The notes beneath the pieces are model-generated. The model was not told the origin of the DNA, searched no databases, and saw nothing but the letters and a program-made list of their open reading frames with translations. From the NCBI GenBank assembly GCA_965198005.1, contig CBDAOI010000004.1, positions 224,001 to 288,000 on the forward strand: a stretch of DNA of 64,000 nt. Direction: 5' to 3'. The first letter of the stretch is position 1, and each line of letters opens with the position of its first letter. Position numbers and translations under genes: made by a program. Of the stretch, positions 41,515-53,962 are shown in pieces. Source of the stretch: Spirochaetia bacterium (GTDB taxonomy: Bacteria; Spirochaetota; Spirochaetia; SZUA-6; Bin103).

Positions 41515-42662
41515 AACGAACTCCATAGAGTAGTTTCTTGAGAGTATTGCGTAGCGGATTACCGCTCCCTGGCTACTCTCGGGCCCGCAACGCGGACGGC
41601 CAGTCTGAGTCAGATTCACTAAGCGCGCGGCGTGTGACTCAGCGGGTTCACCCCGGCTCACGCCGCGCGCGCGTGCGGTTCTTTGAGTATCATTCGAACC
41701 TCCTTCTTCTCTAGATCTACGTCGGGATCTGCGTTACAATCCCACGCGGGGCGGTGGCCGGCGAAGCAGCGAGTCTGAATGGCCGGCAACGCCGGCGGTG
41801 AGTCTTGCCGGCAGTCAGTCGCAGGCGGGGATCCGGGACGGTTGCGATCGCCGGGAAGGGCGTGGCCGGTCCGCATGCCGGTTTTGCGATGGACCGAGCC
41901 GGCGCAACCGATAGCTATAGCTACGGCGGTGGTGAAGGCGCCCGCGTGCGCGGGGTCGCGTACGCGGCGATCAGCCGGGGCGGTTAGTTGTTTGTCGGTT
42001 CGAAAAAGTGTGTGTGGGGGGGGGGACTCCTCACCATTAAGCAAGCGCGCCGCGAGCTGATTTTCAGCAAATCTCGGCGAGCGGCTGTCAGGGGAACAGA
42101 GTGTCATAAGCGTTGACGTGTTATAGGTCACTCAAGCCCTCCGCAGGTGAGGCACAGCCCTACCCAGATGTAGTCGCGATGTCGCGATTGACTGCATCCC
42201 ACCCTAGAATAACCTCCGCTCCCGTGGACGTCAACCACGAATGATGGCCTGAAGAGACAGTCTGGGGGGCCCACCATTTGTCAACCCCCGCCGCGAAAGG
42301 ATTTCCGGGGAGGGGGGGATGGGCAAGGGTAGGACACGCCGGCTGCGCTGCCGCTAACCGGTGGCAGCGCTGAGTAGCGTTTTCAGCCATCTTTTGCATC
42401 CGTTCAAACCTGAGACTCTTAGTATACCACCTCTGCGGCAACCAATCAACAGAAAAAAACAGGCGAATTGAAGGTTTCTTGAGATTTCTTTCAGGCAGCC
42501 GCGGCAGCCGAGAGCCCCTCGCGGCGCCGACTCGGGCGCATCGCCCCTCCGGAGCCGTCATTCGCCGGCGATGTGGCCGTCCCCAGGCCGTTCACCGTCC
42601 ACGTCGGCCTCACAGCGGCCCGCTGAGGGCCTTCCAGCCCCTCGGGGGTAAGCCTGGGGTAC

Positions 42663-44573
42663 GAGCGCCAGGCTAACTGGCATATGACAGAGGGTGAAAG
42701 TCCCTCGGAACGAAGGAGCAGCCAATCCACGTTTCTCCGCGAGCCGTGCGTTGGCACCTGCGAGGGTGCAGGCGAAGCGTCGGCAGCGGTGCGTGCGGGC
42801 AGAGTTATGGAGCGCCGCAAAATACGACATCTGGAGTGCCGAGACTCTGTACTCGGTCGAAGGCAACACCGGTCGAGCCAGTATGGTGAGGATCGACCGG
42901 GCTCCACGGCGTCGAAGAACTCAGGCACGTACGTACGTCATATACCGGGACCTGGGAGGTCTTCGGGTCGTCCCGGCGAGTCGTCGCCGGGACCGCGGAG
43001 GGAAGGCGTGAGGCTGGACCAAAGATGAACGACCCGAAGGAGTCGGACATGGGCATAGTAGCGGCGAAGCCGGCGAACAAGGGAGCGCAAGCGACTGCGG
43101 AGACGGTGGAGCGAAGGCCCATGACCAACGGGAATTCGCAAGGCCAAAGCACGGGCCGGACGCAGAGTCGGGCAACCGTGACACAGGCGGCCGAGCGGAT
43201 ACGGCAATTCGTAAAGAGAGAACCGCAGGAGAAACTCACTGCGCTGCTGCACCACGTGACGCCGGAAGCGCTGGGTGGCCTATTACGCGCTGAAGCGCGA
43301 AGCGGCCCCGGGGGTGGACGGGATGACGTGGCGGGAGTACGAGACGGGGTTGGAAGTGCCTTGCACGACCTGCACCGGAGAGTACACACAGGAGCGTACC
43401 GAGCGACCCCGGTACGGCGGGTCAACATCGACAAGCCGGACGGAGGCACACGACCGCTGGGGGTGGCCGCGCTGGAGGACAAGATCGTCCAGAAGGCCGT
43501 GGTGGATGTGATCCTGACACCGATCTATGAGGAGGAATTTCTCGGGATCAGCTATGGGTTTCGACCGGGGCGAGGGGCACACGATGCGTTGGACGCACTG
43601 GCCTACGCCATCGAACGGCGCAAAGTGAACTGGATATTGGACGCGGACATTCGCGGCTACTTCGATTCGATCTCGCGGGACTGGTTGATCAGATTCCTGG
43701 AGCATCGGATTGGAGATCGGCGGGTACTGCGGCTGATAAAGAAGTGGCTGCGCGCTGGGGTACTGGAAGAAGGCCGACAGATCGACGCGGGGCGGGGTAC
43801 AGCGCAAGGGTCGGTGATTTCACCGATGCTCGCGAATATATACTTGCACTACGTGTTGGACCTGTGGGTCACCAAGAAGTGGCGGCCGCAGGAGGCGCGC
43901 GGAGACATGATCATAGTGCGCTACGCAGATGACTATGTCGCCGGGTTCGAGCATCGTGACGATGCGGAACGCTTCCTGCGGGAACTGAAGGAGCGATTCA
44001 GAGGCTTCGAGCTGGAACTGAACGCCGACAAGACCCGACTCCTCGAGTTTGGACGGTATGCCGAAAGGAACCGCCTGGCGCGCGGAGAAGGGCGACCGGA
44101 GACGTTCGACTTTCTGGGTTTCACGCATTATTGCAGGAAGGACAGGAAAGGACGCTTCGGGCTGGGGCGGAAGCCAATTCGGAAGCGGATGAATCGTACC
44201 TGAAGAGGATCAAGATCGAGCTCCGCAGACGCATGCATGATGACGTGATGGAAACCGGGCGCTGGCTGGGACGGGTACTGCGCGGATGGCTCAACTACTA
44301 CGCGGTACCCACCAGCTACCGCTACCTGTTCGATTCGTGTGGCGTCTGCGAGGAATCTGGGTAAAGATTCTACGCCGGAGGTCCCAGAAGGACCGATTCT
44401 CCTGGGCTTGGATGCTGGCGATCAGCATCAAGCTGTGGCCCCAACCCCGAATCGTACACTCATGGCCGGACCGGCGATTTGCCGTCAACCACCGAAGGTA
44501 GGAGCCGGATGGTTTAACGACCACGTCCGGATCTGTGCGGGGGGCGCCGGGTAACCGGCGTTCCTACCGCGCC
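42663..44573 (+). mobile_element. Group II intron, copy 1 (bacterial class E-like)
   Basis: 5' GAGCG; domain V GAGCCGGATG...CACGTCCGGATC and domain VI; boundaries defined by comparison with copy 2 (3' end +/-1 nt). Confidence 0.9.
43025..44501 (+). CDS. Intron-encoded reverse transcriptase/maturase with several frameshifts, no endonuclease domain
   Basis: KPDGGTRPLG, SYGFRPGR, QGSVISP, RYADD, FDFLGF and GWLNYY motifs. Confidence 0.9.
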
Positions 44574-44771
44574 CCCCTGCAACACCCGTCAACGCCGATT
44601 CCCGGCACCGCTGGCTCCGTATTGACCGCGCCGCCACCGCCCGCAGCCCAGCCTGGTCGGGTCGCAGCCACCTCCAGGACCAGCTACAGGAGTCTGTCGG
44701 ATTGCGACAGACTCATAGCGGTCGGACGGGATGGGCCAAAAGCGGCGCCCCGGCGGTTTTGGGGCGCTAGG

Positions 44772-45027
44772 CGACGGCAGACCTCCTCGAGCGTCAAGCC
44801 GCCGCTCCGTCAGTCGCCGCGCGCGGGGGGAATGGGCCGTTGCTGCGGCCGTCGCGGCGCTCCGGAGGTGCAACCGCGAGCCGCTCGTCGGTTGAGTTCG
44901 AGGCTGCTCGGACAGGAGCGGCAGCACGAGCGCCGCCGCGGCGACGATCTCGGCACTCGGACCCGTTCAGGGCCGGCATTCACCGCCGATTGGCCGGCCC
45001 CCTGAGGGCCTTCCAAACCCAGGGAGG
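44772..45027. repeat. Repeated GC-rich non-coding element, copy B
   Basis: Near-identical to 46072-46363 apart from a roughly 35-nt gap. Confidence 0.9.
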
Positions 45028-46068
45028 TGCTCACCGGGGCGCGCATCCGTGAAGACCTGCAGGGCTGCGACGGGCTGCGCTGGATCACGACCTTGCGCGT
45101 GCCTACCATCCGCAAGCTGATTGCGAACGGTCAGGTGGCGCAGTCGATGTTCGACCAGCGTGATCTGGCCGAGATCAGCTCACCCGACTTCCCCCGCGAG
45201 CGGCTGATCGTGTGCCGCAACCCGGTGTTGGCTGACCAACGCCACCGCAAGCGGCTGGAGTTGCTGGCCGCCACCGAGGACAAGCTGGCCCCCATCGTGA
45301 GAGCCACGCAGCGTGCCAAAGATCCGCTGCGCGGCGCCGCTGAGATCGGTATGCGGGTGGGCAAGGTGATCAATCAGCACAAGGTGAGCAAGCATTTCAT
45401 CACCACGATCACTGAGGACTCATTCACCTATGAACGTGACCTCGAGAAGATCGCTGCCGAAGAAGAACTGGACGGGCTGTACATCGTCCGCTCCAACGTC
45501 GAGCCGGAGTTGTTCGACGCCGATCAGACGGTACGCGCGTACAAGGACCTGTCCAAGGTAGAGCGCGCCTTCCGCAGTATGAAGACGGTGGATCTGAAGG
45601 TGCGCCCGATCTACCACCGGCGCGCTGACCGGGTACGGGCGCACGTACTGTTGTGCATGCTGGCCTACTACGTGGAGTGGCACATGCGCAGCGAGTTGGC
45701 GCCGGTGCTGTTCGATGACCACGATCCGGAGGCGGCACAGCAGCAACGGTCATCGGTGGTGCGACCGGCACAGCGGTCGCCCCGGCGGCACAGAAGAAGG
45801 CGGCCAGGAAGCGCACCGCTGACGATCTGCCGGTGCACAGTTTTCGCAGCCTGATGAACGACTTGGGGACTCTGACGGTCAACAAGATGCAACTTGCCAA
45901 GGCAGGGAGCACGTTCTTGCTGCCGACGCAGCCGACACCGGTGCAGCAGCGCTGCTTCGAGCTACTGGGGGTATCGCCCCGGATGTAGCCACGCACGGCA
46001 CATGCCATTTTGAGCGTAACTATATGACCCCTCGTGACTTACCAAGCATTTGGCTCTGGAACTTCGGG
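45027..46068 (+). mobile_element. IS1634-family transposase 3' half with right end
   Basis: RLIVCRNP, LDGLYIVRSN, YKDLSKVERAFR and RVRAHVLLCMLAY motifs; frameshift near 45780; end GGAACTTCGG. Confidence 0.85.
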
Positions 46069-46071
46069 CTA

Positions 46072-46363
46072 CGACGGCAGACCTCCTCGAGCGTCGAGCC
46101 GCTGCTCCGTCAGTCGCCGCACGCGGGGGGAGGGGCCGTTGCTGCGGCCGTCGCGGCGCTCCGGTGGTGCAACCGCGAGCCGCTCGTCGGTTGAGTTCGA
46201 GGCTGCTCGGACAGGAGCGGCAGCACGAGCGCCGCCGCGGCGACGATCTCGGCACTCGGACCCGTTCAGGGCCGGCATTCACCGCCGATTGGCCGGCAGC
46301 GGGCCGCTCGGCGTCCGAGTCGGCCTCATAGCGGCCCCCTGACGGCCTTCCAAACCCAGGGAG
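46072..46363. repeat. Repeated GC-rich non-coding element, copy C (continues at 51191 after intron copy 2)
   Basis: Direct repeat of 44772-45027; diverged homolog at 42555-42662. Confidence 0.88.
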
Positions 46364-46726
46364 GGCGCGGTAGGAACGCCGGTTACCCGGCGCCCCCCGC
46401 ACAGATCCGGACGTGGTCGTTAAACCATCCGGCTCCTACCTTCGGTGGTTGACGGCAAATCGCCGGTCCGGCCATGAGTGTACGATTCGGGGTTGGGGCC
46501 ACAGCTTGATGCTGATCGCCAGCACACCGACCCTTGCGCTGTACCCCGCCCCGCGTCGATCTGTCGGCCTTCTTCCAGTACCCCAGCGCGCAGCCATTAT
46601 GGGCCCCCCGCTAATATGGGAACCTGGGCGCCATGAGCCGTTGCGTGGCAAGCGGTTAGGGGCTGAACAGGTTCCCATAACGTGCTGTCATCTCCCGGTG
46701 GTTTCTTACCACGAAGGAGATGAATC

Positions 46727-48274
46727 ATGGTCCTACCTTTCCGGCCCCATGCCTCACCCGGGGTCATCCAAGCGCTGGGGGAACGGGTCCTTCCGCCCTA
46801 CGAAGCGCATTTGAACGATCAGGGCTGTTCACCCGGCCTCTTGCACCGGTCGACAGCCACAGCCCGCCACATGATTGCGTGGCTGACGATCAACGAATCG
46901 GAGGTTGCGACACTCGACATCCGCGGCGTGTACCGCTTCCTGCGCCACGACTGCCACTGCCCAGCCGATGTCCGCAACCAGTCGGCCGCGCCGTCACCAT
47001 GGCACGCGCATCGTTTCCTCGGTTACTTGCTCGAAACCGGGCAGGCCGCGGTTCCCGCCTCGATCGTCACGGGCGGCGGACTGGTGGAAGCGTTTGCGGC
47101 CACCCTGGTGGCTCAAGGCTACCGGGAAGGGACCGTTCGCGGGGTGCGCAGCTCCTGTCGCCACCTCGTCGTCTGGCTGTACCGTTCGGAGCTCGCGTTG
47201 GGAGAGATCGAGGACCGCGTTCTGCAGCGGTTTCTCGACCATCGCTGCGATTGCGAGCACCCTGGATTCTTCGGCCGGTCCAGTGCATTCGCTGGAAGCC
47301 GCCGCACCCAGGCGGAGATCGCCAAGTTTGCCAGCTTCCTGATCGACCGGGATGTGGTTGCCGACTGGCGGGAGCCACTGCCGAAGGCCAGCGGCGGGGC
47401 CCATACCGACGCCTTCCTCCGCTGGCTGCGCCAGCACCGTGGTGTCCGCGACACCACCCTGAAGGCATACCGCCAATCCCTGCAAGCCCTGTTGCCGTTG
47501 CTGGGCGATGCCCCGGGCGCCTATGACGCCGCGTCGATCCGCGCGGTCATCCTGGGCCGTGCACAGTCCGGCTCCCGCAACACGGCCGAGGGCAGTGCCC
47601 TGCGATCGTACCTGCGCTTCTTGGCAGTCCAGGGGCTGTGCCGTCCGGGGCTCGTTGCTGCGGTCCCTACGATCCCGCGTCGGACCGCCTCGCAGTTGCC
47701 CCGGTATGTCGAGCAGGAAGACATCGAGGCCCTGATCGCGAGCTGCGACACCGCCACTTCCATCGGATTACGGGATCGGGCCGTCCTGCTGCTGCTGCTG
47801 CTGGCACGGCTCGCTCTGCGCCCCGGAGAAGTTGCCGCCTTGAGGCTCGACGACATCGACTGGGAGCAGGCGTTGGTCGCGGTCAGCGGGAAGTCGCGCC
47901 GCAGCGCAGCGCTGCCGTTGCCGCAGGAGACCGGGGACACCCTCAAGGACTACATCCTGCGAGCGCGACCGCGCACCGCCTGCCCGACGGTGCTTCCGCG
48001 ATTCCGTGCTCCGCACGGCTGCCTGTCCGCCTCCGCGGTCAGCGCAATCGTGCGCCGGGCCATGCAGCGGGCCGGGATCGACGGCGAGGGCCTCCCGGCC
48101 GCCTACGTGTTCCGTCACTCGAGAGCCACCCATCTGCTGCGCAGCGGAGCTGCGCCGGAGGCCGTCGGCGCCCTCCTGCGCCACCAGTCGGTGAAGACGA
48201 CCGCACTCTACGCTCGCGTGGATGCTCCGATGCTGCTCGCTGTGGCGCAGCCCTGGCCGGGGGAACCCCGATGA
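46727..48274 (+). CDS. Tyrosine recombinase RitA-like
   Basis: RDRAVL..LALRPGEV, FRHSRAT, LLRHQSVKTTALYA. Confidence 0.9.
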   Translation: MVLPFRPHASPGVIQALGERVLPPYEAHLNDQGCSPGLLHRSTATARHMIAWLTINESEVATLDIRGVYRFLRHDCHCPADVRNQSAAPSPWHAHRFLGYLLETGQAAVPASIVTGGGLVEAFAATLVAQGYREGTVRGVRSSCRHLVVWLYRSELALGEIEDRVLQRFLDHRCDCEHPGFFGRSSAFAGSRRTQAEIAKFASFLIDRDVVADWREPLPKASGGAHTDAFLRWLRQHRGVRDTTLKAYRQSLQALLPLLGDAPGAYDAASIRAVILGRAQSGSRNTAEGSALRSYLRFLAVQGLCRPGLVAAVPTIPRRTASQLPRYVEQEDIEALIASCDTATSIGLRDRAVLLLLLLARLALRPGEVAALRLDDIDWEQALVAVSGKSRRSAALPLPQETGDTLKDYILRARPRTACPTVLPRFRAPHGCLSASAVSAIVRRAMQRAGIDGEGLPAAYVFRHSRATHLLRSGAAPEAVGALLRHQSVKTTALYARVDAPMLLAVAQPWPGEPR

Positions 48275-49197
48275 CGCTGGCCGACCACGTTCTGACCTAT
48301 GCCGCGTTCAAGCGCGCCACCGGCCTGGCCTTCCGGGAACAGGAGCGGCTGCTGGCCAGCTTCGCCCGGCACGCCGAAGCGCGGGGCGAGCGAAGCGTGC
48401 GCGTCGAGACTTGTCTCGACTGGGCGTCGCAGTCTGCGTCACCGCATAAAAAACAACAGCGGCTGCACCTCGTCTGCGGGCTGGCAGCCTACTTGCATGC
48501 CGAGGACGAACGCCACGAGGTGCCCCACCGCGATGCACTCGGTCGCCAGAGGTATCACCGCCCGCCGCCGCGGCTCCTGTCGCTGGAGCAGATCTGCCAA
48601 GTCATGGATGCGGCGCTGGAGCTGCCTCCCGCCGGCTCCATCACCCCCGTGACCTTCCATTACCTGATCGGGCTGGTCGCGGCGACCGGCCTGCGCCGCG
48701 CGGAAGCCACGGGCCTGCGGCTCGATGACGCCGCTGCGGACGGATTGCAGATCCGCCACGCGAAAGGCGGCAAGCAGCGGCTCGTGCCCCTCCACGGGAG
48801 CGTGCGGACCGCACTGAACCGGTATCTGCAGATCCGCGGGCGATGCGGCAGCCCCAGCGACCGTCTCTTCGTGCTCGCCGGCGGCCGGCCCGTCCAACCG
48901 GACTACCTGTCCCATACCTTTGTCCGACTCGCGCGCCAGATCGGCCTGCGTGGGGGCCCGGGCGAGCCCGGCCCGCGCCTGCATGACCTTCGTCACAGCT
49001 TCGCGACGCGTGCCCTGGAGACCGCTGTGTCCGGCGGTCGGGCAGAGACCAGCCGGCACCTGCTCGCGCTGTCCACCTATCTCGGCCATGCCAACGCCAC
49101 TGATACCTACTGGTACCTCGAGGCAACCCCGGTCCTGCTGAACCAAGTGTCGGCAGCCACCGAAAGACTGCATGCGGGGAGGGGGGACGATGACTGA
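48271..49197 (+). CDS. Tyrosine recombinase RitB-like
   Basis: TGLRRAEA, RLHDLRHSFA, LSTYLGH..TYWYL. Confidence 0.92.
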   Translation: MTLADHVLTYAAFKRATGLAFREQERLLASFARHAEARGERSVRVETCLDWASQSASPHKKQQRLHLVCGLAAYLHAEDERHEVPHRDALGRQRYHRPPPRLLSLEQICQVMDAALELPPAGSITPVTFHYLIGLVAATGLRRAEATGLRLDDAAADGLQIRHAKGGKQRLVPLHGSVRTALNRYLQIRGRCGSPSDRLFVLAGGRPVQPDYLSHTFVRLARQIGLRGGPGEPGPRLHDLRHSFATRALETAVSGGRAETSRHLLALSTYLGHANATDTYWYLEATPVLLNQVSAATERLHAGRGDDD

Positions 49198-50014
49198 GCT
49201 CGCAGGGCCGCTGGCGGCCTTCCTCCAGGAGCACCTGCCGCGCGACCGCGGCGCCAGCCCGCATACCGTGGCGGGCTACGCCGCCAGCTTCAAGCTGCTG
49301 GCGGTCTTCGCGGCGGAGCGTCACAAGCTCCGGCCGTGCCGGCTGCAGGTCGGACATCTCGACATCCCGACGCTGCTCGCCTTTCTCAACCACCTCGAGA
49401 CGGACCGCGACAACGGCGTGCGGACCCGCAACGCCCGCTTGTCTGCGATCAAGTCCTTCTTCCGCTACCTGGAGTTCCGCCACCCGGAATGCTTGGATCT
49501 GGCGGCACAAGTGCATGCGCTGCCCCAAAAGAAAGCCGATCTGCCCCCGCTCGACTACCTCGACCGCGACGAGGTCCGGGCGCTGCTCGAGGCCCCCGCC
49601 ACCCACACGGTCACCGGCCTGCGGGATCGCGCCATGCTGTGCCTGGCCTACAATGCCGGCCTGCGCGTCTCGGAACTGGTCGGCCTGGCCCTGGACGACC
49701 TCCAGGCACCGGGACTCGACCGCATCCGGATCCTGGGCAAGGGCCGCCGCGGCCGCGTCCTGCCGCTGTGGAAGGAAACCCGCGGCGCGCTGCGCACTTG
49801 GCTCGGTGTCCGGCCGGACTGCCCCGACCGGCATCTGTTCCTGAACGCCTTCAAAACCGGCCTGACGCGACGCGGCTTCGCCAAGAGACTCGCCTTGCAC
49901 GCCAAGGCCGCGGCACGCGCAGTACCTTCGATCGCGGGCAAGGCCATCACGCCACACGCCCTGCGCCACGCCTGCGCACTTCATACGCGTTATGGGAACC
50001 TGCTCAGCCCCTAA
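49190..50014 (+). pseudogene. Tyrosine recombinase RitC-like, truncated before the catalytic Tyr
   Basis: GLRVSEL, TPHALRHACA, then breaks at about 49988 into the inverted repeat. Confidence 0.88.
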
Positions 50015-51379
50015 CCGCTTGCCACGCAACGGCTCATGGCGCCCAGGTTCCCATATTAGCGGGGGGCCCATAATGGCTGTTACCGGAACGTTCCGATAAC
50101 AGCCACTTCTTTATCAGCCGCAGCACCCGCCGATCTCCAATCCGATGCTCCAGGAATCTGATCAACCAGTCCCGCGAGATCGTGTCGAAGTAGGCGCGAA
50201 TGTCCGCGTCCAATATCCAGTTCACTTTGCGCCGTTCGATGGCGTAGGCCAGTGCGTCCAACGCATCGTGTGCCCCGCGCCCCGGTCGAAACCCATAGCT
50301 GATCCCGAGAAATTCCTCCTCATAGATCGGTGTCAGGATCACATCCACCACGGCCTTCTGGACGATCTTGTCCTCCAGCGCGGCCACCCCCAGCGGTCGT
50401 GTGCCTCCGTCCGGCTTGTCGATGTTGACCCGCCGTACCGGGGTCGCTCGGTACGCTCCTGTGTGTACTCGCCGGTGCAGGTCGTGCAAGCGCACTTCCA
50501 ACCCCGTCTCGTACTCCCGCCACGTCATCCCGTCCACCCCCGGGGCCGCTTCACGCTTCAGCGCGTAATAGGCCACCCGCAGCGCTTCCGGCGTCACGTG
50601 GTGCAGCAGCGCAGTGAGTTTCTCCTGCGGTTCTCTCTTTACGAATTGCCGTATCCGCTCGGCCGCCTGTGTCACGGTTGCCCGACTCTGCGTCCGGCCC
50701 GTGCTTTGACCTTGCGAATTCCCGTTGGTCATGGGCCTTCGCTCCACCGTCTCCGCAGTCGCTTGCGCTCCCTTGTTCGCCGGCTTCGCCGCTACTATGC
50801 CCATGTCCGACTCCTTCGGGTCGTTCATCTTTGGTCCAGCCTCACGCCTTCCCTCCGCGGTCCCGGCGACGACTCGCCGGGACGACCCGAAGACCTCCCA
50901 GGTCCCGGTATATGACGTACGCACGTGCCTGAGTTCTTCGACGCCGTGGAGCCCGGTCGATCCTCACCATACTGGCTCGACCGGTGTTGCCTTCGACCGA
51001 GTACAGAGTCTCGGCACTCCAGATGTCGTATTTTGCGGCGCTCCATAACTCTGCCCGCACGCACCGCTGCCGACGCTTCGCCTGCACCCTCGCAGGTGCC
51101 AACGCACGGCTCGCGGAGAAACGTGGATTGGCTGCTCCTTCGTTCCGAGGGACTTTCACCCTCTGTCATATGCCAGTTAGCCTGGCGCTCATACCCAGGG
51201 CACCCCCCGGAATCCCGCAAAATGCCCGTCAAAGCCGTTTCCCACCACCGCCGACACCGCTGACACCGCGCGGTCCGCCACCCGGCTCCCGTGTGCCACC
51301 TCGAACATCAATCCGAGACCGGCACTGATCAGCGCTTGCAGGTCAGGAACGACGTGAGGTGCGGGCTGCGGAACCCCCC

Positions 51380-51661
51380 TCAGTCGCGCCCATACCCGCG
51401 CGGCGGCTCGACGCTCTCCAGTTCGGCAAGATCAAGCCCGCACATCGCCTCCAGCCGCTGTGCGACCGCGGACTCCTGGAGACTGTCGGGCAAGTGGTCG
51501 AGCCACGCTTGATACTCACCCTGGAGGTCGAGCAGGGTGCCCACCGCATCCTGCCAGCGCTGCGGTCGGGACCTGCGGTCTTGCGGCCTGCGGTACTGCA
51601 CCCGGGGCTGCGCTGCCTTGCGGCGCTCTCGATAGCGCCGTTCCGCGTTACTTACCGCCAC
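51380..51661 (-). CDS. Hypothetical protein
   Basis: GGGAAG RBS with GTG start; basic N-terminus, YQAWLDHLPDSL...PPRGYGRD. Confidence 0.65.
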   Translation of the reverse strand: MAVSNAERRYRERRKAAQPRVQYRRPQDRRSRPQRWQDAVGTLLDLQGEYQAWLDHLPDSLQESAVAQRLEAMCGLDLAELESVEPPRGYGRD

Positions 51662-51828: not shown

Positions 51829-53091
51829 TCAGGCGGTCAGCGGTCGCGGAGCCCGGTGCTGTGGATCAAACTGCGTGCGGTCACGCAGCATCGCGCACGC
51901 CACCGCGAGCAACCGGTCCGCGACCGTACGCAGCGCCCGGCCATGGCGCTGCCCGCGCGCGCGCAGCGCCGCATACCGCTCCCGACTCACCGGATCGTGC
52001 TGGATCGCCACCCGCGCCCAGTGATACATCGCGTTGCTCAGCCGCTGGTTGCAGGCACGGCGCATGCTCACCTGGCAACTCTTCCCCGACCGCTTGGTCA
52101 CCGGCGCCACCCCGGTCAGAATCCGCAACCTGTGGTAGTCTCGCTCAGCCAGCAACTGTGAGGCCTCCGCGAACAGCGTGGCGAGCACGATCCGACCGAC
52201 ACCGGGCATCGAACGCAGGATGACGGCGTCACGCTGCTCTTCTGGTTCACCCGAGTCGTCGGCGGCCACAATCTCGGCCAGCAGTTCGTCGAGCCGGCTG
52301 TGCGCCTGTTTGAGTTGCTGGTCGACCAGCTTCAGCCGGGCGATGACGCTCGCGATGTGCGCCGTAGCCGCCGCTATCGTCCCGCGGCCCACCTCAAGCG
52401 GCTGCTGCCGCAGGATGCGCAGCACACCGGCAGCAGCGTGGCGCCGGATGCGGTTGCGCTTCAGGATGGCCGCGACCGACGCCTTCCGGACCCGCGCTGC
52501 CTCCGCCGGCGTCGGCGCCTTCTCCCACAACTCCAGAACCCAGCCCGCGCCGAGGTCACCGCCCAGCTCGATCAGCTGCGGGTAGTAGCGGCGCAGTTGC
52601 TCGCGCATGCGATTGATCAGCCCGTTGCGTTCCTCCTGCAACTCGGCAGTCAGGCGCGACCATTCCCGCAACTCGATCACCGGCGGTGCCTGCACCTGCA
52701 ACTGACGAAAGCTGCGTCGGTCGGTGCGCAGCGAGTCTGCCAACACCCGCGCGTCGCGCCGGTCATCCTTGGCGCCGGCCACCGTAAACCGGTCACGAAA
52801 TCGATCCAGCTGCTTCGGATTGATCGCGTACACCTGCACCTCCCGCTCCAGCAGCATCTCGACCACCGCGCCATGCGGCACCTCGATCCCCGCGTGCACG
52901 CGCTCCGGGTGCCCGCCGGATAGCTCGTGCAACCACGCGCACAAGTCGGCGATGCCGGCGCCGCTATGGGCCACCTGCCGTTCCGCGACCACCTCCCCGT
53001 CACCCTCAAGCACACAGATCTGATGTTGCTGGGTCGCCCAATCGATACCCACGAACCACTGTTCGGTCTGTTCGGTCTGTTCGGTTGACAT
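51829..53091 (-). CDS. IS110-family recombinase
   Basis: DEDD residues FVGIDW, GIE, KDDRRDA; PGVG and APVTKRSG motifs; GGAGG RBS. Confidence 0.95.
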   Translation of the reverse strand: MSTEQTEQTEQWFVGIDWATQQHQICVLEGDGEVVAERQVAHSGAGIADLCAWLHELSGGHPERVHAGIEVPHGAVVEMLLEREVQVYAINPKQLDRFRDRFTVAGAKDDRRDARVLADSLRTDRRSFRQLQVQAPPVIELREWSRLTAELQEERNGLINRMREQLRRYYPQLIELGGDLGAGWVLELWEKAPTPAEAARVRKASVAAILKRNRIRRHAAAGVLRILRQQPLEVGRGTIAAATAHIASVIARLKLVDQQLKQAHSRLDELLAEIVAADDSGEPEEQRDAVILRSMPGVGRIVLATLFAEASQLLAERDYHRLRILTGVAPVTKRSGKSCQVSMRRACNQRLSNAMYHWARVAIQHDPVSRERYAALRARGQRHGRALRTVADRLLAVACAMLRDRTQFDPQHRAPRPLTA

Positions 53092-53119
53092 CCTGTCACC
53101 TCCCGAGATTGTGGAGCTC

Positions 53120-53305
53120 GGCTGCCACGATGTCGTTCCACCCCTGTACTGGTGCTCCGGTGCTCCGGTGCTCCTGGCACCTTCCCACCTGGCACTACTC
53201 CTCACTGGGTATCCATCGCGGCACTCCTACCGGGGCACATGTCCCCCCCGGGCGCTCTACGGCGCGGGGGGCTCAAGGTTGCTCCCGGTAGGCTGCCTTG
53301 CCCGC
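53120..53305 (-). ncRNA. Putative IS110 bridge RNA
   Basis: Two stems with internal loops (CCTACCGGG/CCCGGTAGG and TGCCGCGATG/CATCGTGGCA); the second loop carries two 9-nt matches to the element end at 53352-53371. Confidence 0.75.
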
Positions 53306-53416: not shown

Positions 53417-53962
53417 GGGGGCGCAGCGAGGCTAGCTGCTGAACTTGCGGGTGTAAGTCCCGCCGGCGCAAATCCCAGTGTGGCGCCGTAGTTATATCCG
53501 GCAGTCGACAGGGGCGACTCTGACGGCTGAAAGCCCGGAAGTAAACGTACTCAGGGGAGGGCGTGAGCCCGACCGACCAACCTAGGAGGCTAACAACCAG
53601 AAGGGCCGTAGCGAGAGCGAACGGACTAATCGCCGAAAACCTCCCCAGCGGGAAGTTGGTTGCTGGATCTCGGAGTGCCAAGGGTTTCCCCCTCCTACCC
53701 GATGGCCAGTGCTGCTGCGGAAGAAACTGGGAAGTGCACGCGGTAGGCTCCCGGCGGAAGTTGAAGGCGGCAATTCTGGATAGTTCAGCAGTGAAAGCCC
53801 GGAAGGTGTGCTGCTCAGGCAGGATGATCCTCGAATGCCAAGGACCGGACCTATAACCGCTGGATGGCGGGAAGTGGAACGGAGAGCAGCAGACTGGCGG
53901 ATGAGGCCACCAAGCGACGATGGCCGCGACAACATAACGCGGCTGGAGCGAGGGCCTCAGGG
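53417..53962 (+). mobile_element. 5' fragment (domain I region) of a different group II intron, cut by IS3 copy 2
   Basis: GGGCG..GGTGTAAGTCC start, structured non-coding sequence, GACAACATAAC motif; no RT ORF. Confidence 0.6.

Follow-up and report, generated by a model that had tools for sequence, protein, structure and literature searches.

Two decayed copies of an endonuclease-less group II intron, probably self-inserted at a strand-inverted motif of a tandem repeat in a Spirochaetia genome

The stretch of DNA analyzed here, called the window, is 64,000 nucleotides (nt) long and comes from a Spirochaetia bacterium (assembly GCA_965198005.1, contig CBDAOI010000004.1, positions 224,001 to 288,000). 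It carries two group II introns in opposite orientation, which an earlier interpretation of the letters alone (the sequence-only reading) had placed in a palindromic site of a repeated element. We consider it likely that they are two decayed copies of a recently expanded and still active, endonuclease-less intron that inserts itself, with a preference for one replication strand (the lagging-strand template), at a motif whose strand is inverted between two subfamilies of the repeat. The mechanism would be the known endonuclease-less, replication-linked retrohoming, and the window adds one more case of it and no new targeting principle.

The genome (4.89 Mb in four contigs, C1 to C4, 66% G+C, the window being C4:224001-288000) was searched by blastn. 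The Rfam model RF02005 (group-II-D1D4-6) matches both copies, at 42697-42921 (+) and 50932-51156 (-), with 169.5 bits each for a gathering score of 49, and the copies are inverted repeats of each other, 98-99% identical over stretches of 632, 391, 165, 87 and 72 nt, which bears out the presence of two real introns in opposite orientation. Removing them restores homologous loci, also as proposed: intron-free copies of both types of flanking unit, termed A and B, are found elsewhere in the genome, and alignment with these copies set the exact intron ends. Metagenome contigs with a 1911-nt skip show the same limits as copy 1. Beyond what had been read from the letters, copy 1 is frameshifted, and copy 2 is interrupted by a 3.5-kb recombinase-in-trio (RIT) element and has lost 598 nt. 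The introns and their exons are the following:

42616-42662, + strand: left part of an A-type unit, the 5' exon of copy 1 (G+C-rich hairpin, TTCCAG; from the sequence and the alignment with empty A sites)
42663-44573, + strand: group II intron copy 1, 1911 nt, dead, GAGCG...CCUACCGCGCC, limits from empty sites
44574-44687, + strand: right part of the A-type unit, serving copy 1 as 3' exon and beginning CCCCTGCAAC
46072-46363, + strand: left part of a B-type unit, serving copy 2 as 3' exon when read on the minus strand (CTCCCTGGGTTTGG...)
46364-51190, - strand: group II intron copy 2, dead, split by the RIT element, with 598 nt lost at the 46524/46525 junction
51191-51640, + strand: right part of the B-type unit, whose first bases are, on the minus strand, the 5' exon of copy 2

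The 5' exon of copy 1 holds a G-run at 42644-42648 and ends with the intron-binding site 1 (IBS1) GGGTAC at 42657-42662; the corresponding IBS1 of copy 2, GGGTAT, is the reverse complement of 51191-51196.

Besides many fragments, the genome contains 15 full-length copies of this intron, 98.1-100% identical and three of them mutually identical. An intact member measures 1916 nt and has a frame at 228-1844, open in 13 of the 15 copies, that encodes 493 aa from the first ATG. Copy 1 differs from it by four small deletions, 5 nt in total, and metagenome contigs still contain the lost bases, as insertions at 43272, 43359, 44199 and 44328; its open reading frame (ORF) is consequently frameshifted and cut to 392 aa. 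The 493-aa intron-encoded protein (IEP) matches TIGR04416 (group II reverse transcriptase/maturase) with 351.2 bits, over a cut-off of 300, and RVT_1 with E = 4e-35. RVT_1 was the only hit in the Pfam search of this protein, which matched neither an HNH endonuclease nor the maturase model GIIM, in agreement with the endonuclease-less intron that had been supposed.

The flanks of both introns belong to a unit of about 350 nt found in tandem arrays, one of which, on C1, comprises 2.7 units with a period of 352. A and B units have in common a left module, in which TTCCA comes after a G+C-rich hairpin, and a right module (CCCGTCAA...), and the core between the modules is 37 nt long in A units and 46 nt in B units. 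Empty A sites read ...GGGGGTAAGCCTGGGGTAC^CCCCTGCAAC..., or ...CCTGGGGTAC^CCCCTG... in the short form, and empty B sites, on the strand that receives the intron, read ...GGGGGGTACCCTGGGGTAT^CTCCCTGGGTTTGG... or, in their other form, ...CCCTGGGGTAT^CTCCCTGGG... Genome-wide, the intron is parallel to the unit in all seven occupied A units and antiparallel in all ten clearly occupied B units, and thus homologous units do hold it in opposite orientations, as the window alone had suggested. The palindromic core likewise stood, as an imperfect palindrome, A and B cores each being partly self-complementary.

What did not survive is the idea of one symmetric site used from both strands. The insertion point lies 26 nt from the left module in A units and 11 nt in B units, about 15 bp apart, and therefore the two cannot be a single phosphodiester bond seen from two strands. 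Comparison of the A core with the reverse-complemented B core gives 22 of 27 matching columns, a score that none of 2000 shuffles reaches, while on the same strand it gives 20 of 28 columns (5 of 2000 shuffles reach the score). It is the motif itself, a G-rich sequence of about 26 nt around the site, that is inverted, with its A version on the top strand and its B version on the bottom strand, and the opposite intron orientations follow because of this inversion between the two unit subfamilies. At the centre, the exact palindrome GGGGTACCCC gives each strand of both A and B units a GGGTAC followed by C; of these four centre sites, only that on the A top strand is used, and the A bottom-strand site and the two B sites never are.

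Concerning the replication strand, GC skew was used as a proxy and the locally G-rich strand was taken as the lagging-strand template. Positive skew covers the first 2.12 Mb of C4 and most of C3, and negative skew covers C2 and the part of C1 past 80 kb; the switch to positive skew on C3 coincides with dnaA, at C3:366 kb. All 15 full-length copies read with the G-rich strand. Among 33 motif sites, the motif is on the G-rich strand in 15 of 18 occupied and in 4 of 15 empty ones (Fisher p = 0.0016, a value that overstates the evidence since the intron copies are related), and the three occupied copies on the wrong strand, window copy 2 among them, are all broken. By analogy with the Sinorhizobium introns RmInt1 and RmInt2, the intron RNA would reverse-splice into single-stranded DNA of the lagging-strand template and the nascent strand would prime cDNA synthesis. 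The favoured target would be the motif within the unit, and the filling of a unit would depend on the motif being on the G-rich strand. A lagging-strand bias has been shown experimentally for RmInt1, RmInt2 and Sr.md.I1 (PMC4615759, PMC5894124).

The unit appears to have preceded the intron. It is present in genomes of the same genus, with 82-96% identity in G001, about 75% in arrays of 4-5 units in G003, and also in G004; some match to it was found in 12 of 31 relatives. A search for the intron in five same-genus genomes gave only fragments or relatives of 68-73% identity in three and nothing in the other two, and a unit that occurs in genomes lacking this intron is therefore older than the intron burst. 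Arrays adjoin an IS110-family transposase gene in this genome, IS standing for insertion sequence, and lie directly downstream of istB, of an IS21-family element, in G003. Array loci were recorded at L001 886-1835, L064 5719-6953 and L065 5520-6754. Both strands of the unit carry long open frames, in DNA of 66% G+C, and units differ from each other by single-base indels; a Pfam search of the ORFs near the unit gave no domain match.

It could be argued that none of this reports on targeting, because the intron may have spread passively, carried along by duplicated or inverted units or blocks, or because copy 2 may result from inversion or misassembly, so that the orientations would be uninformative. 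The region is indeed repetitive, nearly all of 36-55 kb recurring 2-76 times in the genome; the window locus itself duplicates a locus on C1, and at two loci the flanks are chimeric, suggesting recombination between intron copies. Those two are the full-length copies at G000 C3:813795 and C3:153305, one with a non-repeat 5' exon and a B-type 3' exon and the other reversed, which suggests a rearrangement through such recombination. Nevertheless, we regard this explanation as very improbable. Three introns that are 100% identical sit in diverged A units, each with a 5' exon variant of its own and with upstream flanks 93-96% identical to the window A unit. Homology between the flanks of occupied loci is short and mosaic, ending after 40-1077 nt, and occupied units do not all have multi-kilobase flanks in common. 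Precise empty sites exist, the orientation rule holds in 7/7 A and 10/10 B units, and a replication-strand bias is not expected from passive copying.

The history of the locus speaks to the same question. A paralogue at C1:201500-207500 is colinear with the window. Its A site is empty, its B site holds an intact intron with the relative orientation seen in the window, and both the RIT element and the internal deletion are absent. This paralogue keeps the earlier state and shows copy 2 not to be a local inversion, which answers a doubt that had been raised in advance. Most likely, the window locus was copied from a C1-like locus whose B site was already filled. That copy would have landed with its replication polarity reversed; the A site, then exposed, would have been invaded to give copy 1, both window copies decaying afterwards.

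To return to self-insertion, the means of target recognition could be followed through the exons. Considering nine exon variants, the only intron segments complementary to all of them are GUGCC at position 174 and GUACU/GUACUC at position 187. GUGCC was discarded as exon-binding site 1 (EBS1), since only the segment at position 187 is in a hairpin loop, an 8-nt one in the Rfam model, where GUACUC pairs with GGGUAY. The ATACC near 42942 that the sequence-only reading had put forward as EBS1 is outside the Rfam domain I model and absent from the complementarity matches, and is thus not EBS1. In the relatives the EBS1 loop covaries with the last six exon bases over 31 junction contexts with 14 loops, our own included, a count that is partly circular because the junctions were located by requiring complementarity; these junctions coincide with the start of the conserved intron 5' sequence and, in multi-copy relatives, also with the point where the flanks diverge. 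Recognition of the DNA target by the intron RNA is thus shown, at the level of base complementarity, by the predicted pairing of EBS1 GUACUC with GGGUAY. The base 3' of the insertion site is always C. The relevant parts of copy 1 are:

42697-42921, + strand: domain I core (Rfam RF02005, 169.5 bits)
42820-42833, + strand: internal loop at the EBS2 position, limits approximate (Rfam alignment and by-eye comparison with relatives)
42849-42854, + strand: EBS1 GUACUC, the last six bases of the 8-nt loop CUGUACUC, with partners GGGUAC, GGGUAU and GGGUGC
43025-44203, + strand: truncated reverse transcriptase ORF, 392 aa where intact copies have 493 aa
44502-44533, + strand: domain V, with AGC triad and 2-nt bulge
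44535-44573, + strand: domain VI, with the bulged branch-point A at 44566 and the intron's terminal CC seven bases beyond

The loop at the position of the second exon-binding site, EBS2, pairs with the exon over 4-6 bp in relatives and over at most 3 bp in this intron (UAC with GUA), as judged by eye, and a by-eye search of this intron for an alternative C-rich EBS2 loop found none. IBS1 followed by C can hardly define the target, as GGGTRYC stands unoccupied 2867 times in the genome, compared with 24 occupied 5' junctions. The G fraction at -20 to -7 averages 0.50 at occupied and 0.34 at unoccupied sites; G-richness as a sufficient determinant was rejected, since 476 of the 2867 unoccupied sites have at least 50% G over these positions. 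An additional determinant may lie in the G-rich distal 5' exon, a G-run plus UA at about -19 to -12. Because the EBS2 loop mismatches the target, the probable reader of this determinant would be the IEP, and it may indeed act so by likeness to RmInt1 and RmInt2 (PMC4615759).

Six of the 24 5' junctions are outside the repeat family, in unrelated sequence, which speaks against targeting by the palindrome. One such ectopic copy (L054 874-1599 and 3519-4406; G000 C3:964601) splits a 539-codon frame in sense orientation, and the downstream part of that frame carries an IrrE/Peptidase_M78 domain.

An intron with so poor an EBS2 pairing invites a different explanation, namely that the particle reads a structure, a stem-loop formed in single-stranded DNA by the G-run and the C-run (GGGGGGTACC / GGTAT^CTCCC), much as class C introns do. 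The stem-loop would replace the missing pairing between EBS2 and its exon partner IBS2, and its near-symmetry would allow entry from either strand. In its fullest form, a IIB-like (E/F-type) intron without a working EBS2-IBS2 pairing would read the stem-loop on the lagging-strand template instead. If true, this would be structure-guided targeting that arose independently of class C introns, and the near-palindromic stem would explain the colonisation of both strands of one repeat family. B and C unit targets do fold into a 10-bp hairpin with the site in its 3' arm (z scores of -3.2 and -3.8), so that the site in a hairpin arm initially described holds for these units; it does not for A units, whose target forms only a weak 4-bp hairpin (z = -0.8, not better than shuffles) or, by eye, a stem of 7 bp with a 9-nt loop. 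The limit of 3 bp on EBS2 pairing, the 2867 unoccupied IBS1-plus-C sites and a Klebsiella plasmid relative inserted, likewise, directly after a CTGT..ACAG palindrome fit this idea too. Still, it appears unlikely to us. Of the 5' junctions, 6/24 are elsewhere, folding of two ectopic sites gave nothing like this hairpin (z = -0.2 each), and out of 19 distinct targets from related introns 18 folded no more stably than their shuffles (z above -2). The B stem takes up four of the six IBS1 bases in its own pairing and so competes with EBS1, and class C hairpins sit upstream of IBS1. Finally, the symmetric centre sites, GGGTAC plus C, are left unused on three of the four strands.

Several points weigh against self-insertion at an inverted motif under replication control. 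The GC skew is weak (mean 100-kb values of 0.00-0.03) in a rearranged, IS-rich assembly of four contigs, the gene-strand bias agrees only weakly with the strand assignment derived from it, and two C3 sites at 142-153 kb, left of dnaA, lie where the skew is about zero. Four empty B sites are on the favoured strand, and selection against head-on copies could mimic an insertion preference. To the relatedness of the copies, which inflates the Fisher test, and to the partial circularity of the covariation count are added a target specificity that is partly unexplained (the 2867 unoccupied GGGTRYC, 476 of them G-rich), non-consensus intron termini (GAGCG at the 5' end of 15/15 copies, CC at the 3' end of 12/15) and RNA-library contigs that cannot separate spliced exons from empty sites.

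As regards these libraries, sponge metatranscriptome runs contain about half of the sampled sequence words, and their contigs cover most of the intron; this coverage may come from intron RNA or from DNA carry-over. A 162-nt contig (X14) joins the exons exactly and was considered as a sign of splicing, which was dismissed since a contig of X1 does likewise and empty genomic sites give the same joint. Because its sequence is present in sponge metatranscriptome runs, the organism appears to be an uncultured sponge-associated bacterium.

The ribozyme departs from the consensus in several respects. The GUGYG...AY ends are replaced by GAGCG in all 15 copies on the 5' side and by CC in 12 and AC in 3 on the 3' side; over the clade, 5' ends are GAGCG, GAACG, GAAAGCG, GAUAGCG or GUGCG, and 3' ends CC, AC, AA or AU. 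The domain V model RF00029 gives 31.2 bits, under its gathering score of 40. By eye, the AGC triad, the 2-nt bulge and the bulged A at 44566, seven bases from the 3' end, are recognizable, and this arrangement is kept in 15 relatives. In most clade members the domain V strand facing the AGC triad reads GGAUC, not GGUUC, with the middle G opposite A. The ribozyme is small, with about 434 nt of the intron outside the ORF, and probably IIB-like.

IIE and IIF introns are described as small IIB-like ribozymes of 450-700 nt without the ORF, with an endonuclease-less IEP and a 5-nt domain V loop, in which EBS2 is dispensable for splicing, class F having the same traits as class E: no endonuclease, small ribozyme and 5-nt loop (PMC3753933). 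The small ribozyme (~434 nt non-ORF) and the endonuclease-less IEP of the present intron resemble those of IIE/IIF members such as Cl.be.I2 and Pe.th.I2 (PMC3753933). It differs in its non-consensus termini and in its own domain V loop, which reads 4 or 6 nt, the 5-nt loop being found in relatives L015, L024, L026, L028 and L030; the likeness is one of traits. On the ribozyme size, the missing endonuclease and the 5-nt loops of several relatives, the earlier "class E-like" label is plausible, with class F looking alike. A second intron family of the RF02005 type (181-186 bits; G000 C4:360094, C4:380865, C4:411628, C3:760519 and C3:979111) shows canonical GUGCG ends, with an EBS1 that matches CCUCCU by complementarity and, from copy to copy, a covarying EBS2 loop.

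Among known systems, the nearest in behaviour is RmInt2 of Sinorhizobium meliloti GR4, a class D intron without endonuclease. It enters the two inverted repeats of ISRm17, which are "located in opposite replication strands", and the lagging-strand template therefore carries one of these sites in every case (PMC4615759). Like the present intron, it is endonuclease-less, multi-copy and found in both orientations in one repeated element, and it has the same bias for the lagging-strand template and tolerance of poor EBS2-IBS2 pairing (PMC4615759, PMC5894124). In our case, however, the host element is a tandem repeat unit of about 350 nt and not an IS terminus, the two target orientations are in two diverged unit subfamilies and not at the two ends of one element, and the ribozyme is of the RF02005 type with GAGCG...CC ends; the two introns are likened by behaviour.

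RmInt1 (S. meliloti, ISRm2011-2) retrohomes without endonuclease into single-stranded DNA at the fork, at a target extending from -20 to +5 whose distal 5' exon part is recognized by the IEP; it also has ectopic insertions and inactivated copies, as does the intron described here (PMC5894124, PMC8914252, PMC6698660). In the present case, the mechanism is deduced from GC skew and from the occupancy of sites.

Class C (IIC) and IIC-attC introns, the precedent named in the sequence-only reading, are reported to lack an endonuclease and to insert at DNA stem-loops of terminators or attC sites (PMC4424553). The present intron differs from them in its full 6-bp EBS1, its AGC triad in domain V, its Rfam D1D4-6 match and its relatives with a covarying EBS2 loop. 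IIC introns have a CGC triad. Moreover, the site here is inside the 3' arm of the stem and not downstream of it, where class C introns insert using only a short IBS1 plus IBS3. Class C ribozymes have no EBS2 element; the internal loop that holds EBS2 in relatives is present in this intron and gives, by eye, at most 3 bp with its natural targets.

The closest named relative is the ltrA intron of Klebsiella and Escherichia coli plasmids called Kl.pn.I5 / Se.ma.I1 (PMC6764390, for the name). Its IEP is 52% identical over the full length, and the two introns agree in the architecture of the EBS1 hairpin and in the 3' end ...CCCUACCGCGAC, the plasmid intron differing by its canonical GUGCG...AC ends. 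A search for the class of Kl.pn.I5 / Se.ma.I1 found none in the papers covered, and the literature on the Rfam group-II-D1D4-6 model came without a class mapping. On a Klebsiella pneumoniae plasmid (L056, about 810-835), the intron lies immediately after a CTGT-N8-ACAG palindrome, upstream of a colicin-like gene; this palindrome resembles a LexA box.

The repeat family collects other mobile elements besides the intron, namely a DDE IS fragment and the RIT element, whose positions are as follows:

44772-45027, + strand: left half of a B-type unit, repeated directly at 46072-46364 and ending abruptly at the IS fragment
45027-45854, + strand: DDE transposase gene fragment (PF01609)
46597-50099, + strand: RIT element within copy 2, with three tyrosine recombinase genes and 92-nt inverted ends

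The DDE transposase fragment is flanked by the two direct copies of the B-unit left half (44772-45027 and 46072-46364). The first of these ends ...CCCAGGGAGG right at the IS fragment, a junction also present in the C1 paralogue, and its two terminal G bases might be all that is left of an earlier intron copy. Concerning the RIT element, its recombinase genes are at 46727-48274, about 48271-49197 and 49172-50014, with a Phage_integrase match in all three ORFs, and its 92-nt inverted ends are 99% identical. Comparison with the uninterrupted paralogue shows that the 6-bp CAGCCA is duplicated at 46591-46596 and 50100-50105. The right end is a near-perfect palindrome of 32 bp (50074-50105), in which 20 bp of element sequence stand between inverted copies of CAGCCA. 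Beyond copy 2, an IS110-family transposase gene at 51829-53205 (-) is followed at 53445-53616 (+) by a fragment of a different group II intron (RF02003, 51.6 bits), in which neither an intact ORF nor a domain V match was found.

Taken as a recent burst of 15 near-identical copies, the family offers a natural example of the colonisation of a genome by an endonuclease-less group II intron, where filled and empty sites are directly comparable and occupancy tracks the replication strand. Self-insertion at the inverted motif, which we hold to be the likely explanation, would extend the picture drawn from RmInt1 and RmInt2 to a different ribozyme type and to a host element that is a tandem repeat. 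The clade with unusual ends (GAGCG, GAACG or GAAAGCG at the 5' side, CC or AA at the 3' side) is, in addition, something that ribozyme biochemists can put to the test.

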